From Saccharofermentanales bacterium (GTDB lineage: Bacteria > Bacillota > Clostridia > Saccharofermentanales > DTU023), in assembly GCA_050951925.1 (NCBI GenBank), contig JBMNJZ010000001.1, positions 220,207 through 284,206 on the forward strand: a stretch of DNA of 64,000 bases. Reading direction: 5' to 3'. Position numbers and translations under genes: made by a program. Shown here piece by piece: positions 40,852 to 61,825 of this stretch; positions within the stretch are counted from its first letter, which is position 1, and every line of letters starts with the position of its first letter. Below the pieces are notes generated by a model that made no database searches, was not told where the DNA came from, and was given only the letters and a program-made list of their open reading frames with translations.

Positions 40852-40942
40852 GGAGAAATACCCAAGAGGCCGAAGGGGACGGTTTGCTAAACCGTTAGTG
40901 GGGGCAACTCCAGCGAGGGTTCGAATCCCTCTTTCTCCACCA
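40852..40942 (+). tRNA. tRNA-Ser (anticodon GCT)
   Basis: Acceptor GGAGAAA/TTTCTCC, anticodon arm ACGGT-TTGCTAA-ACCGT, long variable arm, T-arm GAGGG-TTCGAAT-CCCTC and encoded CCA. Confidence 0.95.
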
Positions 40943-51037: not shown

Positions 51038-51127
51038 TGGCGGAGAGTGAGGGATTTGAACCCTCGGAAGACGTACGCCTTCCCCGGTTTTCAAGACCGG
51101 TGCCTTCAGCCACTCGACCAACTCTCC
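51038..51127 (-). tRNA. tRNA-Ser (anticodon TGA)
   Basis: Reverse complement GGAGAGT...CCGGT-CTTGAAA-ACCGG...GAGGGTTCAAATCCCTC-ACTCTCC-G-CCA with a long variable arm. Confidence 0.95.
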
Positions 51128-57089: not shown

Positions 57090-58121
57090 TCAAACATTGC
57101 CCAAGAACACCCTTGTTAACTTCCGTTCGGCAATTCTCTTGAGCCGTCGCAGAGTCTCAAGCGGAGTCGGGGGCGGCTCTGTCAGCCGATATCCGGGGAA
57201 ATAACGCGACAGATGATAGGGTATATCGGGATCAATCCCCGCCAGCCAGGAAGTCATTTCCGCAATCTCCTGCTCATCATCTGAGAAACCGGGAATCACG
57301 AGTGTCGTAATCTCCAGATGGGCGCCGGCGGCCGCCAGTTCGATGGTGGATCGCACCAGGTCCAGTGATCCGTTCAAGCTGCGGTAGCCTTCGTCTGAAA
57401 AACACTTGAGATCAATATTCCAAGCGGTAGTATACTCGGCCAGCCGGCGGACGGGGCCGGGTCGGAAACTGCCATTGGTGATTAAGACGGTCTCAAGTCC
57501 GGCGCTTCTGGCCAAGCTGAAAGTCTCGAGGATATATTCGAAATTGATCAGGGGCTCGTTGTAAGTAAAGGCCAGACCGATATTGCCCATCGCACGCTGA
57601 TCGAGTGCGATTTGAACCAGTTCAGAAGGTGAATAACGGCGGTTGCGGGCAGCGGCGCGGTCGATCATCCGCCGGTCGGTGATCTGAGATATATGGCAGT
57701 TCTGGCAAAAGGGACAGGTAAGATTGCAGCCGAAACCGCCGGCCGACAGGATATACGTGCCCGGGTGAAAGCAAGCCAGCGGCTTCTTCTCGATCGGATC
57801 CAGGGCCAGGCCGGTCAGGAGGCCGGCGTAGTGGTTGACTATCTGCCGGCCGGTATTGCCGCGCGCTCCGCAAAAGCCTGTCTCACCCGGCGCCAGGCGG
57901 CAGTTGTGCTGGCAGAGCGGACAGGTTAAGACGGGACCGGGGTTTTGCGGCTTGGCATTAGCTTCACTGTCAAAAGCGGCGCCGGCGCCGGTTTCGCTCT
58001 GCGCAACGGAGATAGCGTTTACACAGGAGCCGGTTTCTATAATTGTTTGTCGTTTATCCTTGCTCGTTTTGATGTCTGACCACCTCGAATCGTTCGAGCT
58101 CAACAGGTTCGGAACGGCCAA
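57090..58121 (-). CDS. AmmeMemoRadiSam system radical SAM enzyme (start uncertain)
   Basis: CPLCQHNC...G.CGAR, DPIEKKPL..FHPG, GCNLTCPFCQN and FTYNEP motifs. Confidence 0.9.
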   Translation of the reverse strand: MAVPNLLSSNDSRWSDIKTSKDKRQTIIETGSCVNAISVAQSETGAGAAFDSEANAKPQNPGPVLTCPLCQHNCRLAPGETGFCGARGNTGRQIVNHYAGLLTGLALDPIEKKPLACFHPGTYILSAGGFGCNLTCPFCQNCHISQITDRRMIDRAAARNRRYSPSELVQIALDQRAMGNIGLAFTYNEPLINFEYILETFSLARSAGLETVLITNGSFRPGPVRRLAEYTTAWNIDLKCFSDEGYRSLNGSLDLVRSTIELAAAGAHLEITTLVIPGFSDDEQEIAEMTSWLAGIDPDIPYHLSRYFPGYRLTEPPPTPLETLRRLKRIAERKLTRVFLGNV

Positions 58122-59559
58122 TGCCTGCCTTTTGTCTGGCGATGTCGATCTGTTGCTCTATTGAGCTGATGCCATCCAAATTGGGCAGCAGCAGACCTTT
58201 CCGCAGACCCCGGCTGACAATCACGCCGTAGCGCTTGATATCAAGTTCAGAGGAATCCGTGATCGGCTCCGGCGGTCGCAGTACATCGACGCTGTACTCC
58301 AGTTCCGACAGCTCGTCCAGGCCAATCGGGCGAAAGCGCGGGTCGCGGGTGCCGGCCGCTACGGCATTGCTCATAATTTCCTCCGCCAATGTGCCATAAC
58401 TCGGTTGGATGGTGCCGATACAGCCCCTGAGCTGACCTTGCTTATGGATTGTCACAAAGGCACCGGCTTTGCCTGCAGTGATTTCTTGAGGCAAAGCTGC
58501 CTGTTCAGCCGGTGTCAGTGGAGGCTTGCGCCCGGTCCGGATATAGTTTTCGACTGTATGCTTGGCCAGCGCGACATAGGGATCGCCGCTGAGCCAGGGA
58601 ATATCCTTTCCGGAACTGAGACTGGGGGAGTCCGGTCGCAGATCGCGGAAAGCTGCTATAGCATAACCGACGCCATAGGTACCCTCATAGCTCAGGAGCT
58701 CCGACTTATAAGCGGTATCCGCCAGTACGCCGCCCAGAATATTGAAAGATCTTAGCCCGCATTCGGCGACCTCTGCCAACAGATCATCATCATAGGCAAG
58801 CAGCCGGGCGAAGTCTCCCGCGCCGAGGGCTGCGGTCAGATCGCGGTCAAAAGCTTCGCCGCGCGGCGCCAGACCGTATGGACTATCCGCTTTCAGGCGA
58901 TGTGAGAGATCGCCGCTGGCAATGAAGACAACCCGCTTGCCGGAAGCGGCAATAGCGTCCCGGATTGCCCGGCCGTAATTGTGATGGATCTGAGGCGACA
59001 GGCCGGAAAAAGACAGGCGAACCAAACCGGGGGTCAGTTGCCACTCGCGGAAGTCGGCGGACGACCGTTGCCTGGCATCGGCAGCAGACCGGACAGCGGA
59101 TTTGCCGGCGGCCGCAGAGGGGAATTGTTGCTCCGCGACCGAAGCAGCCCATTCCGCCCGCGCGATAAAGTAAAGGGGAACAAAGCTGCCATGATCGACT
59201 CTGCTGCCTAAATCCGCATTCCCCGCGCTGATATGTGTCGGGATCGCGGCGGATTGCGCCTTGTCCCGGATGAGACTGATCAGATCCTGATCATAATTCA
59301 TGGTCAGAACCGGCTGCCCGGCACCGAAAGATGCCAATGACATCGATTCAACGCTGCCGCCGATCAGTCGAAAAGCGCCGGATAACGCAGGAGCATGCGG
59401 CGAAACAAGGATAATCGTATCGGGTTGAGCTTGAGCTATCTCGGTCCCTACCCGGTAGTAGGCGGCCATTGTTTCAGGGATTCCCTTCTCGGCGCCCCTG
59501 CCTACCGCCGGCACGGCTAATGGCGGATGAGGTACTGCATAAGCTGAAATTAAAGTCAT
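58054..59559 (-). CDS. AmmeMemoRadiSam protein: LigB/Memo-like domain fused to AMMECR1
   Basis: Memo/LigB part: PHPP, SPH, DHG, ASGDLSH, ECG. AMMECR1 part: GAFVTI, LRGCIGT, DPRF, GLLLP. Confidence 0.9.
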   Translation of the reverse strand: MTLISAYAVPHPPLAVPAVGRGAEKGIPETMAAYYRVGTEIAQAQPDTIILVSPHAPALSGAFRLIGGSVESMSLASFGAGQPVLTMNYDQDLISLIRDKAQSAAIPTHISAGNADLGSRVDHGSFVPLYFIARAEWAASVAEQQFPSAAAGKSAVRSAADARQRSSADFREWQLTPGLVRLSFSGLSPQIHHNYGRAIRDAIAASGKRVVFIASGDLSHRLKADSPYGLAPRGEAFDRDLTAALGAGDFARLLAYDDDLLAEVAECGLRSFNILGGVLADTAYKSELLSYEGTYGVGYAIAAFRDLRPDSPSLSSGKDIPWLSGDPYVALAKHTVENYIRTGRKPPLTPAEQAALPQEITAGKAGAFVTIHKQGQLRGCIGTIQPSYGTLAEEIMSNAVAAGTRDPRFRPIGLDELSELEYSVDVLRPPEPITDSSELDIKRYGVIVSRGLRKGLLLPNLDGISSIEQQIDIARQKAGIGRSEPVELERFEVVRHQNEQG

Positions 59560-59747
59560 CTGCTACACTCCTTTATTCTTTGCCAAAGCGGACAAGTCAC
59601 ATCAGTCAGCTCTGAAAACACCCTGCCGTCTGATCGACAGGCAATTAGATTGTCACCGCAATTCCCGGCGACAAATAAGTACTGTCTTGTTATAAGTATA
59701 GCGCATTCTTCCCATAGGACAGAGTTTAGCCTGGCACGCGGCACCCG

Positions 59748-59776
59748 TTGACGGGGAAAGCAAAATTTATTATTAT
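59748..59776 (+). promoter_or_regulatory. sigma-A promoter upstream of the cobalamin riboswitch
   Basis: TTGACG-17 bp-TATTAT. Confidence 0.65.
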
Positions 59777-59794
59777 AAGTTCAGATATAATCAA

Positions 59795-59945
59795 TATTTC
59801 CGGATGCTCGGGAAACAGGTGCAAGACCTGTGCGGTACCGCCGCTGTAAGTGAGACTTGTCCTCAGACGGATGTCAGCCACTGATTTGATTGGGAAGGCG
59901 AGGATTAAGGCCAAAAACTCACGAGCCAGAAGACCGGTTCGGAAA
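59795..59945 (+). ncRNA. cobalamin (AdoCbl) riboswitch
   Basis: GGGAAacaGGTGcAAgaCCtgtgCGGtaCCGCCGCTGTAA ... GCCACTG...GGGAAGG ... GAGCCAGAAGACC (B12 box), in the correct order. Confidence 0.88.
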
Positions 59946-60006
59946 TGATGCCAATACACAACGGTTTATTGTGTCGCGGCGCTTGAGTTATTGACGGTAA
60001 AAACGG

Positions 60007-60034
60007 GCCGCAACTTTAGGAGTTGCGGCTTTTT
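60007..60034 (+). terminator. intrinsic terminator of the riboswitch expression platform
   Basis: GCCGCAACT-TTAGG-AGTTGCGGC-TTTTT. Confidence 0.8.
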
Positions 60035-60199
60035 GTGTTGGAAGAGAGCTAAAAAGGATAGCGCTCAAATCCGGCCGAATAACATATTTACAATGTCGTT
60101 ATGCGATTTTGTATACTCCTTTTCTCATTTCTGATGCAGGGCTGGCGCCGGATTTCCTGGCCCGGGGCCGGTAGCCGGCCCGCATCGGGACAATCACCA

Positions 60200-61825
60200 T
60201 TAATCGTAAGTAATCATATTCAGATCGAGCATATTCTTCTTGATTTGGGCTAGGGTTGACTTCAGGGCACTGAGCTGTTCATCTGACAGTTCGTGCAGAT
60301 CCGGCGGCTGATCCTCCCAGGAACCCATCATGCGGCCGACTTCGTCCATCATCTTGCTAACTTCATACAGATCCGGAGCACTGACCAGGATAGAAGTGCT
60401 ATGATGCGTTTCGTCGCCCAGAAATTCCAGCTCATCTCCATAGCGCGGGATCATCACATCAATGCCAAAAGTCTCCTCAATATTATCTTTCAGCGGCAAC
60501 ATCTCCCTGCTTTCACCGTGAACCAGGACCACTTGCCTGGGCTTGGTCTCAAAGTCTGCCAGCCAGTTCAGCAATGTCGGTTTGTCAGCATGGGCCGAAA
60601 AGCCGGGCATGCTGTACACCGAAGCCTTGATATCGACCCAGGAGCCGGCGATCTTAACCTTGTCCGTAGTTCCGTCCAGGATGATGCGTCCCAGTGTACC
60701 CGCGGCCTGATAGCCGACAAAGATGACAGCGGACATGGGATCCCAGAGATTGTACTTGAGATGATGACGAACCCGCCCGCCTGTAGCCATACCGCTGGCC
60801 GAAATGATAACCTTGGGCTCCCGCTTTTCATTCAGTGCTTTTGATTCATCCACTGATCGGGTATAGGTGAGATTGGGGAAGTTGAAAATATTGTCGCCGC
60901 GGCGCACCAGGGCCTGAGCCTCTTCACCCAGCAAATCGGTATGCCGCATAAAAACTGAAGTTGCTTTCGTCGCCATCGGACTGTCCACATAGATCGGAAC
61001 AGGCTGTCGCTGGCCGTGGCCGCCGTACTCAAAGTATTTGTTCATCTCATAGAGCAATTCCTGTGTGCGGCCGATCGCAAAGCTGGGGATAATCACGCTG
61101 CCGCCGCGATTAATTGTCTTATAGATCACCTGCATCAACTGATCCAGCGAATCCTGATATTTGGCATGGACGGTATTGCCGTAAGTTGACTCGAGAATAA
61201 CCAGATCCGCTGCCTCGATAGCGGAGGGATCGCGGATCAGTAAATGGTCATGCATGCCGAGATCTCCGGAGAAAACTACCTTTGTCGTCTTGTCGCGCTC
61301 CGTAATCCACAGCTCAATTATCGCCGACCCCAGAATATGCCCGGCATCTCGCAATCGCATTCGGATATTAGGCGTCAGATCAACCATTTCCTCATAGTAA
61401 TACGGCTCAAACAGTTCCATCGCCGCAACCACGTCATCTGAATCATACAGAGGCTCCAACAGATCCTCGCCGGCGCGCTGGCGCTTTTTATTCTCCCATT
61501 GGATATCGAAATATTGAATATTCGCCGAATCCTGGAGCATAATATCGACCAGCTCCATTGTCGCCTGCGTCGTATAAATCGGTTTGTCAAAACCCTCTTT
61601 GACCAGCTTGGGAATCCGTCCCGAGTGATCTAAATGCGCATGGGTCAGAATCAAAAAATCCAATTGTGAGATATCATAAGGGAAATCCAGCCGATTCCTG
61701 GCTTCCTCACTGGCACTGCCCTGGAACATTCCGCAATCAATCAGAAAACGCTCGCCATTCTCCGTTGTGACCAGGAAATTAGAACCCGTCACATCCTCGG
61801 TCGCGCCATAAAAAATAATTTTCAT
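60200..61825 (-). CDS. MBL-fold beta-CASP ribonuclease
   Basis: DCGMFQG, THAHLDHSG, AGHILGS, ESTYG and FSAHAD motifs. Confidence 0.92.
   Translation of the reverse strand: MKIIFYGATEDVTGSNFLVTTENGERFLIDCGMFQGSASEEARNRLDFPYDISQLDFLILTHAHLDHSGRIPKLVKEGFDKPIYTTQATMELVDIMLQDSANIQYFDIQWENKKRQRAGEDLLEPLYDSDDVVAAMELFEPYYYEEMVDLTPNIRMRLRDAGHILGSAIIELWITERDKTTKVVFSGDLGMHDHLLIRDPSAIEAADLVILESTYGNTVHAKYQDSLDQLMQVIYKTINRGGSVIIPSFAIGRTQELLYEMNKYFEYGGHGQRQPVPIYVDSPMATKATSVFMRHTDLLGEEAQALVRRGDNIFNFPNLTYTRSVDESKALNEKREPKVIISASGMATGGRVRHHLKYNLWDPMSAVIFVGYQAAGTLGRIILDGTTDKVKIAGSWVDIKASVYSMPGFSAHADKPTLLNWLADFETKPRQVVLVHGESREMLPLKDNIEETFGIDVMIPRYGDELEFLGDETHHSTSILVSAPDLYEVSKMMDEVGRMMGSWEDQPPDLHELSDEQLSALKSTLAQIKKNMLDLNMITYD

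Follow-up and report, generated by a model that had tools for sequence, protein, structure and literature searches.

What does a cobalamin (B12) riboswitch control when no gene stands behind it? The question is raised by a locus in the window, by which we mean the whole 64,000-nt stretch of Saccharofermentanales DNA that was analysed (source genome G000). The original prediction was that a riboswitch without a sense-strand gene here faces cofE-like, mnmA and beta-CASP genes, and this is the arrangement that we found: the riboswitch is genuine and has its own promoter and terminator, and there is no gene behind it. We put at about even chances the explanation that this gene-less unit makes a B12-gated non-coding RNA, of ~250 nt with B12 bound, and in its read-through form carrying a structured tail and running antisense into the beta-CASP mRNA. 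In the literature the term 'orphan riboswitch' stands for a ligand-less class, unlike the gene-less case described here.

Layout of the locus

The features of the locus are given in Table 1. The claim of a complete AdoCbl aptamer at ~59795-59945 was borne out by a match to RF00174 that scored 80.8 bits (E 2.5e-18; gathering score 31.5), covered positions 1-189 of the 189 in the model and was not truncated. The promoter that had been proposed upstream of it was also found by the promoter scan. Promoter-like matches number one in 1.4 kb against an average of 1.7 in shuffles, so their number is itself not above chance, and both hexamers are kept in all four species that carry the locus (G000 and its relatives G001, G005 and G002). 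The intrinsic terminator, claimed at 60007-60034, was read by the terminator scan on the plus strand as a strong 12-pair stem at 60005-60031 followed by a T-run and on the minus strand as a stem at 60029-60007 followed by CCGTTTTTAC. The arrangement expected of a bidirectional intrinsic terminator, with an A-tract before and a U-tract after a GC-rich hairpin, is thus predicted on both strands.

Table 1. Predicted and annotated features of the riboswitch locus (window coordinates)
Feature	Position	Strand	Basis
Divergent 501-aa gene, AMMECR1 + LigB/Memo-like domain	58054..59559	-	Pfam domains
Putative sigma-70-type promoter, TTGACG-17-TATTAT	59748..59776	+	Promoter scan, 10/12 consensus matches
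Expected transcription start	~59783-59788	+	Promoter position
Cobalamin (AdoCbl-type) riboswitch aptamer	59785..59956	+	Rfam RF00174 covariance model
Platform hairpin, 6-bp stem, loop CGGUUUA	59956..59974	+	Predicted fold
Two-way intrinsic terminator: A-tract, GC-rich hairpin, U-tract	59994..60039	both	Terminator scan
Tail hairpin A, loop with AAGGAG/AAGGAU-like stretch	60044..60066	+	RNAalifold, three sequences (G002 cut by contig end)
Tail hairpin B	60089..60113	+	Consensus fold: 9 pairs, 100% of cells paired
CU-rich stretch UACUCCUUUUCUCA, predicted single-stranded, Shine-Dalgarno-complementary	60114..60127	+	Unpaired in predicted folds
Tail hairpin C: long GC-rich stem, conserved base, variable top	60128..60191	+	22 pairs, 97.7% of cells paired
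Convergent 541-aa beta-CASP / RMMBL metallo-beta-lactamase-fold nuclease gene	60200..61825	-	Pfam domains

The module lies between two co-directional minus-strand genes, the AMMECR1/Memo-like gene and the beta-CASP gene. The former had been described as a divergent AmmeMemoRadiSam neighbour, and this agrees with its domains and with the radical SAM gene that comes after it. The Pfam domains of the facing operon are Beta-Casp/RMMBL, MnmA and F420-ligase-like. There is no B12-related gene near the locus, and the RF00174 riboswitch is not in the 5' leader of such a gene here.

The simplest question about the stretch after the terminator is whether it codes for a small protein, in which case the riboswitch would be an ordinary leader. 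This stretch, 60035-60199, was measured as 165 nt up to the beta-CASP stop at 60200, which is the length that had been stated, and no conserved ORF was found in it, in keeping with the claim that it holds no credible one. Open frames are present, namely, one of 50 aa at 60101-60253 (+), a TTG frame from 60109 and one of 33 aa at 60099-60200 (-) whose ATG overlaps the beta-CASP stop. However, G001 and G005 lack the ATG at 60101, the length of the TTG frame varies among the four species (21, 63, 63 and 35 codons), and the 33-aa frame is stopped or has no start in G002; moreover, there is no Shine-Dalgarno sequence at the right distance and no Pfam match. A small protein is very hard to credit.

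Misassembly, which it had been proposed to check, is unlikely because sampled words of 59560-60400 were all found in 14 DNA runs, although these were flagged as possible sources of the assembly, and because the arrangement is repeated in relatives. The same arrangement was found in G001, in G005 and in two further metagenome contigs, which do not differ from the G001 type where they could be aligned.

Distribution and conservation of the module

The module is carried only by the four closest species, which are anaerobic-digester Clostridia. In G003, G004 and G006, the three other genomes of the same genus with a readable junction, the whole module is missing: the AMMECR1/Memo-like gene comes directly after the beta-CASP gene, the two are joined by 34-180 nt without a riboswitch, and the tail, that is, the stretch after the terminator, is absent too. 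When relatives were checked for a normal coding sequence after the terminator at this locus, as had been suggested, none was found. A covariance model of the tail (R1) gave strong matches in 4 of 65 family genomes and one further 19-bit row (E 0.64), while exact-pattern scans of the species-genome collection returned 3 relatives only, together with the 2 metagenome contigs. On this distribution the module is, evidently, a lineage-specific insertion. In G002 the contigs break between terminator and tail, leaving the riboswitch and the tail on separate contigs, and the contig ends at the break hold a 15-nt inverted repeat that occurs nowhere else in that genome. A riboswitch in G007 was considered as the same locus and rejected, as it lies at a contig end with FabZ-like and MarR-like ORFs upstream (by eye) and belongs to another locus; the beta-CASP contig of G007 begins 10 nt after the stop codon, before any junction.

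Of 21 riboswitch loci that were looked at, a same-strand ORF lies within 150 nt in 16; contig ends truncate 2, and the other 3 are the orphans described here. The closest relatives of the module are leaders of surface-protein genes. Leaders in three genomes of a sister genus (G020, G050 and G052) have in common with this locus the CGGUUUA-loop hairpin, the ACGGUAAAAACGG tract and the GC-rich terminator, and that of G020 is 70% identical to the locus over aptamer and platform. All four orphans and all three leaders have the same loop; the outer stem differs between the two groups. What follows the terminator is different: in G020 and G052 it is a ribosome-binding site and, ~60-75 nt after the terminator, a gene for a signal-peptide protein, whereas here it is an unrelated non-coding tail and a convergent gene. 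A PQQ_2 propeller is present in the G020 product, and DUF4430+PQQ_2 proteins are encoded behind the related leaders of G019 and G010; the G020 surface protein as query found no homologue in G000. Since the platform is common to these gene leaders, it would work as a gene switch elsewhere.

These findings could be explained if a B12-uptake leader, with or without its gene, had landed in the ancestor of the four species and then lost the gene, the rest being a young and functionless leftover. The absence of the module from G003, G004, G006 and the rest of the family, the surface-protein genes behind its closest relatives and the lack of a B12-related gene nearby are all consistent with this. The conservation of the module is not. 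Identities to G000 are given in the order G001, G005 and G002 throughout. Four-fold sites of the beta-CASP gene are identical at 71%, 71% and 27%, the last of these indicating that they are saturated against G002. In comparison, identities are 161/172, 161/172 and 138/167 for the aptamer, 42/48, 42/48 and 39/46 for the linker, and 50/52, 50/52 and 48/52 for the tail core (60096-60147); the terminator is identical at 35/36 in both G001 and G005. The aptamer is thus 83% and the tail core 92% identical in G002 despite the 27% at four-fold sites, which counts against a neutral relic. The aptamer score is likewise unchanged, the three orthologues giving 80.0, 81.4 and 81.6 bits. G001, G005 and G002 all retain the two promoter hexamers, but the spacer has drifted (8/17 identical in G002), and in a neutral relic the hexamers would be expected at the level of the spacer. 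Conservation is lowest between the platform hairpin and the A-tract and highest, for the whole locus, in the tail core, which lies within the 165-nt stretch. Every part of the module is, to judge from these identities, under purifying selection, and the tail core is the strongest case. The suggestion in the original prediction that the riboswitch is an orphan left after deletion of its gene does not fit with promoter hexamers, aptamer, platform, terminator and tail that are all conserved far above the four-fold sites of the neighbouring gene, and we consider a functionless leftover to be quite improbable.

The tail and the strand on which it acts

The tail folds better than its shuffles on the plus strand (z -4.37), and in the consensus structure 97.3% of cells are paired as against 39-48% when partners are slid. 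Eleven tail pairs vary only by exchanges of G-U to G-C or A-U, so that pairing is kept on the plus strand; 2 of the pairs in hairpin B vary between G-U and A-U, and 7 pairs in hairpin C vary on one side only. There were no two-sided pair changes among the four sequences, of which about three are independent. The CU-rich stretch lies within the tail core and reads on the minus strand as the Shine-Dalgarno-like GAGAAAAGGAGUA. Hairpin C has no U-tract after its stem. A known RNA family was looked for and rejected: Rfam searched at E up to 10 over 59560-60260 gave only chance rows of <=20.1 bits for the tail, all below gathering scores. A repeat was rejected as the tail is single copy in the genome, and a mobile element because phages gave no match and the sole plasmid matches were two of 32 nt, in Rhizobium, at chance level.

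The tail is also read from the other side. Between the beta-CASP stop at 60200 and 60029 no other minus-strand terminator was found, which makes the tail part of the beta-CASP mRNA; its transcription from the minus strand, as 3' UTR, is certain. Because the tail is this 3' UTR in any case, the conserved element could belong to the minus strand, either as a structured 3' UTR of the beta-CASP operon or as a small RNA cut from it. The riboswitch RNA would then always be stopped at the shared two-way terminator, at ~250 nt, and would bind B12 or act alone, or else its transcription would modulate termination of the opposing operon or read-through into the AMMECR1/Memo gene. SreA and SreB of Listeria, SAM-riboswitch RNAs that act on their own, are a model for such a short RNA.

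Several results agree with a tail that serves the minus strand. Besides the terminator-like hairpin that runs into CCGTTTTTAC on that strand and the lack of any other terminator there, the minus-strand fold also beats its shuffles (z -4.11), and in G002 the tail core is conserved despite the contig break that separates it from the riboswitch. The terminator is strong and an antiterminator is not evident: no convincing conserved one was found in the four species, the helix given by RNAalifold touching only the base of the terminator, and no convincing kissing-loop or antiterminator partner of the CGGUUUA loop was seen by eye. An alternative pairing of the 5' arm of the terminator with aptamer positions 59832-59840 has a probability of ~0.55, in a sequence that is invariant and so beyond a covariation test.

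RNA-library contigs bear on the same question. Both riboswitch and tail are present in them, in contigs that are without strand and may include DNA carry-over. Strandless contigs from two studies join the end of the beta-CASP coding sequence to the tail, as a 3' UTR would require, and others, again strandless and from two studies, cross the plus-strand promoter (59682-59832 and 59667-59831), which fits a minus-strand RNA running antisense through the riboswitch. One strandless contig, 59914-60064, extends ~26-30 nt past the U-tract, which is not enough to make it a bridging contig. Where contigs stop near 59810-59854, they do so at the core that is common to the riboswitches of other organisms, and two RNA contigs of a relative (59788-59977, and coding sequence to ~60043) come from one run only. 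These contigs were therefore not used to place a 5' or a 3' end or to judge a level, and uncovered parts were not counted as evidence.

On the other hand, G-U exchanges in the stems amount to C-A mismatches when the minus strand is folded; the long stem is then down to 7 pairs, and the RNAalifold consensus energy is weaker (-21.8 kcal/mol versus -26.2 for the plus strand). As the same plus-strand sequences had served to predict the structure, the strand call leans to plus. The A-tract is also kept in the gene-leading homologues, and so it need not serve the opposing gene; the tail arrived together with the riboswitch, the same-genus genomes without the riboswitch being without the tail as well; and a tail belonging to the minus strand leaves selection on the promoter and on an intact, ligand-competent aptamer unexplained. 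We consider this explanation possible, if rather unlikely. If it is correct, the locus would exemplify a two-way terminator common to a riboswitch and an operon.

The original prediction did not mention that the flanking genes are co-directional, nor the lineage-specific insertion, the two-way terminator, the highly conserved element in the 165-nt stretch or the tail as beta-CASP 3' UTR.

Proposed mechanism and comparison with known systems

Control of a non-coding RNA by a ligand is rare but is an already known kind of control. To our knowledge, proof that a riboswitch controls a non-coding RNA is limited to a few bacteria (AspocR, EutX/Rli55), and each of the targets is obviously tied to B12. 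We know of no such tie for beta-CASP nuclease, MnmA or CofE-like proteins.

In the explanation that we prefer, the locus would be a self-contained transcription unit in which B12 sets the length of a non-coding RNA. A constitutive-looking promoter would start the RNA at ~59785 and the AdoCbl-type aptamer would fold first. With B12 bound, transcription would stop at the terminator, at ~60036, and give an RNA of ~250 nt; we infer a B12-dependent stop because the platform is common to gene-controlling homologues and because AspocR and EutX set the precedent. When B12 is scarce, part of the polymerases would read through, which would add the conserved ~150-nt tail with hairpin A, hairpin B, the exposed CU-rich stretch and hairpin C, and would then go on antisense into the beta-CASP 3' end. 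Within the tail the promoter scan gave no plus-strand match, and therefore plus-strand tail RNA could be obtained only by read-through. The parts of this unit, their order and their conservation under selection were seen in the genomes compared; the B12 gating, the strand on which the tail functions and the targets are what we infer from them.

The long form would be the effector. Its sequence is the full complement of the 3' UTR and of the end of the beta-CASP operon mRNA, so that it would have to pair with that mRNA when both are made. The extra synonymous constraint by which an antisense structure might give itself away was looked for in the 3' part of the beta-CASP gene and not found (0.70 in the last segment versus 0.75 overall), and a plus-strand terminator-like site inside the gene, at 61468-61483, is not kept in G002. 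In addition, the exposed anti-Shine-Dalgarno-like stretch could block ribosomes on other mRNAs in trans. When RNAduplex was run with 60110-60135 against 2,728 crude start regions, there was no standout: the best duplex, -24.7 kcal/mol at a HisS/HisZ-like gene (by eye), is about what chance gives for the top of such a list (mean -10.0, sd 3.7), and the genes of two B12-binding-domain proteins gave -10.8 and -13.3, near the genome mean. An anti-Shine-Dalgarno seed matches every strong ribosome-binding site, and hence this comparison has little power to pick out trans targets. A further, and rather unlikely, proposal makes the tail a new small RNA for B12 starvation: a leader would have been copied from the operon for B12 uptake and captured between unrelated genes, and would gate a 150-nt effector, in which UACUCCUUUUCUCA, between two hairpins, would repress translation of a group of mRNAs in trans once B12 is exhausted. 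If trans-repression is true, the riboswitch would serve as sensor for a whole regulon rather than for a single operon, in a lineage of Clostridia that is uncultured, has a small genome and scavenges B12.

Should the long form exist, it would mean that a leader for B12 uptake can be copied and put to new use as a free-standing sensor, and the compact unit of ~450 nt (promoter, aptamer, terminator and tail) could be tested in a reporter host. The same design as in the known systems is here under clear selection in an uncultured anaerobic-digester lineage, with a tail of no known RNA family and facing genes that have no known B12 link. Whichever strand the tail serves, we regard this as a moderate finding.

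The closest parallel is AspocR (Rli39) of Listeria monocytogenes, a B12-riboswitch-gated antisense RNA to pocR with a short form of 230 nt and a long form of 1,400 nt, pocR being the gene that controls B12-dependent propanediol use and B12 synthesis (PMC8079631). Both loci have a cobalamin riboswitch with its own promoter, an aptamer followed by a terminator, no ORF in between and a convergent target gene. The terminator gives the short form (230 nt there, ~250 nt predicted here) and read-through gives a long antisense RNA, which is likewise a prediction here. The systems differ in that the AspocR target is tied to B12, whereas the facing beta-CASP, MnmA and CofE-like genes have no known link to the ligand; in that a conserved structured tail between terminator and target and a two-way terminator are features of this locus; and in that gating and antisense action are predictions here.

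EutX of Enterococcus faecalis and Rli55 of Listeria are small RNAs gated by an AdoCbl riboswitch that sequester the ANTAR regulator EutV (PMC5821096). As is predicted here, the riboswitch decides in those cases on the addition of a conserved structured effector tail past the terminator. Unlike those RNAs, the tail of our locus lacks a pair of hexaloop hairpins (the predicted loops measure 11 nt and 4-5 nt, and hairpin C has a variable top), and it is thus probably not an ANTAR substrate. A search of the genome for ANTAR (PF03861) gave no match, but 14 control genomes were equally silent. A further difference is that there are no eut genes near the locus, and the exposed element here is the CU-rich stretch.

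The gene-less riboswitch unit and its setting

The host genome (G000) is a single contig of 1.75 Mb with three cobalamin riboswitches, of which one lies upstream of a Peripla_BP_2 binding protein and another upstream of an operon that includes a DUF4430 protein. Since this genome encodes two proteins with B12-binding domains and CobS, B12 is used and salvaged. The remaining riboswitch leads no gene. It belongs to a plus-strand module of promoter, riboswitch, terminator and tail within a 640-nt spacer; the genes on either side of this spacer are co-directional, and every flanking gene is encoded on the minus strand (see table). The complete aptamer and the intrinsic terminator of the original prediction were both recovered, the former over the full length of the Rfam model. 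The predicted promoter was also found by the consensus scan, which gave one match against a shuffle average of 1.7, so that the match alone is not beyond chance; it is credible because of its conservation pattern across relatives. Pfam domains confirmed the convergent beta-CASP gene and the AMMECR1/Memo gene on the opposite side. As predicted, the 165 nt from 60035 to 60199 have no credible open reading frame, and since the frames there have no Pfam match and the relatives compared do not preserve any of them, it is very improbable that a small protein is hidden after the terminator.

Features of the locus, with identities to G000 in three genomes of the same genus
Feature	Position	Strand	Basis or remark	G001	G005	G002
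AMMECR1 + LigB/Memo-like gene, 501 aa	58054-59559 (start 59559)	-	then radical SAM gene, RapZ			
Promoter TTGACG-17-TATTAT	59748-59776	+	consensus scan; aptamer begins eight bases further on	29/29	24/29	19/29
Cobalamin aptamer, RF00174	59785-59956	+	80.8 bits (gathering 31.5), E 2.5e-18, whole model	161/172	161/172	138/167
Linker				42/48	42/48	39/46
Terminator, 12-pair hairpin then T-run	60005-60031	+	consensus scan	35/36	35/36	cut by contig end
Terminator, minus-strand reading, then CCGTTTTTAC	stem 60029-60007	-	consensus scan			
Hairpin A	60044-60066	+	consensus fold			
Hairpin B	60089-60113	+	consensus fold			
Tail core	60096-60147			50/52	50/52	48/52
Unpaired CU-rich stretch UACUCCUUUUCUCA	60114-60127	+	consensus fold			
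Hairpin C, long, GC-rich, no U-tract after it	60128-60191	+	consensus fold			
Beta-CASP gene, 541 aa, Lactamase_B + Beta-Casp + RMMBL	60200-61825 (stop 165 nt past 60034)	-	Pfam			
MnmA and F420-ligase-like genes	behind beta-CASP gene	-	domains			

Two minus-strand features of the spacer were also observed. The start ATG of a 33-codon frame (60099-60200) shares bases with the stop codon of the beta-CASP gene (TAATG); this resembles translational coupling, and the frame is probably due to chance because it is lost in G002. The AMMECR1/Memo-radical SAM operon has a leader (59560-59747) that is 74-79% conserved in G001 and G005 and contains a terminator-like hairpin (59641-59622) followed by GTGTTTTC about 60 nt ahead of the start codon; this may be an attenuator or some other leader for the AmmeMemoRadiSam genes.

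Distribution and conservation among relatives

The gene-less arrangement is also present in G001 and G005 at 90% identity and recurs in G002, where identity is 79% in the riboswitch and 87% in the tail and the module is split over two contig ends. These are the genomes closest to G000 by beta-CASP protein identity (96%, 95% and 81%, respectively). In G003, G004 and G006, also of this genus, the beta-CASP proteins are 71-73% identical and a LigB+AMMECR1 gene follows after 120, 34 and 180 nt, respectively; these junctions had no Rfam match and no tail similarity. G007 was left out of the junction comparison because its contig begins 10 nt past the beta-CASP stop codon. Because the module is present in the four closest genomes and absent from G003, G004 and G006, its distribution indicates that it is a gain within one subclade. 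In none of the relatives does a coding sequence follow the terminator at this locus, a comparison that the original prediction had proposed. Of 21 riboswitch loci surveyed across the genus and family, 16 are followed within 150 nt by the start of an ORF on the same strand, three are these orphans and two are cut by contig ends.

The G002 assembly breaks precisely between the terminator (L025, end of contig C188) and the tail (L024, start of C34), and a 15-nt inverted repeat that is absent elsewhere in G002 is present at both contig ends; there may be an insertion or a long palindrome at this break. In G001 (L005, aligned over 59720-59790) and two identical metagenome contigs, the -35 region occurs a second time about 24 nt upstream, and a 9-nt insertion separates the -10 hexamer from the aptamer. 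The short spacer of G003, which is without the module, has a hairpin and T-run by eye.

At four-fold degenerate sites of the beta-CASP gene, G000 shares 71% identity with G001 and with G005, and 27%, which is saturation, with G002. The module is far better kept than these sites, and this makes it unlikely that it is a functionless relic and rules out free decay of an orphan left after deletion of its gene, the alternative raised earlier. G002 keeps the -35 hexamer of the promoter unchanged, along with 5/6 positions of the -10 hexamer and 8/17 of the spacer; aptamer bit scores show no loss in any of the four species, and the tail core is the highest-conserved piece of the whole spacer. The gene-less B12 riboswitch unit is real and under selection and, because the module is so much better kept than four-fold sites, sequence comparison indicates that the 165 nt after the terminator hold a functional element.

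Expression platform and tail structure

Three elements make up the expression platform: a hairpin whose loop, CGGUUUA, is invariant, the tract ACGGUAAAAACGG and the terminator. This platform recurs in riboswitches of a sister genus (G020, G050 and G052), whose terminator stem co-varies, and in G020 and G052 a gene starts about 60-75 nt past the terminator. The match with these gene-leading riboswitches indicates that the orphan is derived from a leader that worked for B12-capture genes, and the orphan's platform is probably still B12-responsive. The closest gene-leading riboswitches (L009 in G020, L008 in G019 and L011 in G010) precede secreted proteins with a PQQ_2 beta-propeller, either alone or with DUF4430 (transcobalamin-like); the G020 protein has the propeller and those of G019 and G010 have both domains. 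These are candidate corrinoid-capture proteins, and a search of G000 with the G020 protein found no homologue. No conserved antiterminator was identified, the RNAalifold helix reaching only the terminator base. The terminator 5' arm is predicted, in a truncated transcript, to pair with aptamer positions 59832-59840 at a probability of ~0.55, a pairing that lies in invariant sequence. Because the terminator hairpin also scans as a minus-strand terminator, a single predicted hairpin can end both transcripts, that of the riboswitch and that of the beta-CASP operon.

The tail folds far better than shuffles on the plus strand (60035-60200, z -4.37), and its minus-strand fold also beats them (z -4.11). 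Its consensus structure has 97.3% of cells paired versus 39-48% with partners slid. In the four sequences no pair has changed on both sides, and 11 pairs vary one-sidedly through G-U exchanges, which on the minus strand turn into C-A mismatches; the consensus energy is -26.2 kcal/mol on the plus strand versus -21.8 kcal/mol on the minus strand. The exchanges and energies favour the plus strand as the tail RNA strand, and this is suggestive only because the structure was derived from the same four sequences. The tail matched no Rfam family and is unique within G000; a search of 65 genomes of the family and of two public collections found it in these lineages only.

A possible B12-gated RNA

We give about an even chance to the locus making a B12-gated non-coding RNA. 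With B12 present, an RNA of ~250 nt would end at the terminator; with B12 absent, read-through would add the conserved tail and run antisense into the beta-CASP mRNA. Such an RNA might act purely in cis, as antisense on the beta-CASP operon, or in trans through the CU-rich stretch, which is exposed and resembles an anti-Shine-Dalgarno sequence. A crude duplex scan across the genome gave no standout trans target, and no synonymous constraint marks the antisense-covered beta-CASP coding sequence. The main alternative, which we rather doubt, is a tail that works for the minus-strand mRNA, forming its 3' UTR, alongside a riboswitch RNA made in the short form only. Digester metatranscriptome runs give the locus as contigs only, from which strand, ends and levels are unreadable. 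In contigs of two studies the tail is joined to the end of the beta-CASP coding sequence (60027-60245, and a 1,275-nt contig of a relative), and an exact contig spans 59809-60004. Contigs in two studies (59682-59832 and 59667-59831) cross the plus-strand promoter and cannot have been started by it; they suggest transcription of the minus strand across the riboswitch, an upstream start or DNA carry-over. The contig 59914-60064 stops about 26-30 nt past the U-tract and was too short to be counted as bridging.

A gene-less riboswitch gating a non-coding RNA is a design already known, and the tail is of no known family. AspocR is a short RNA of 230 nt when B12 is present and an antisense RNA of 1,400 nt when it is absent (PMC8079631), and in EutX/Rli55 B12 removes the effector part of the small RNA (PMC5821096). 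The gating logic of both is the one proposed here for the B12-gated RNA. Unlike AspocR, the present locus has no known B12-linked target and carries a conserved tail, and it appears to lack the dual hexaloop hairpins of EutX/Rli55; an ANTAR search of G000 gave no hit, and neither did the control genomes. Further systems for comparison are the S-box antisense RNA of the C. acetobutylicum ubiG operon and SreA/SreB. A conserved effector tail, an uptake leader captured between unrelated genes and a shared two-way terminator would make this locus a compact test case. Elsewhere in the window there are two tRNA genes whose variable arms are long, one of 88 nt at 40852-40939 (+) and one of 87 nt at 51041-51127 (-).
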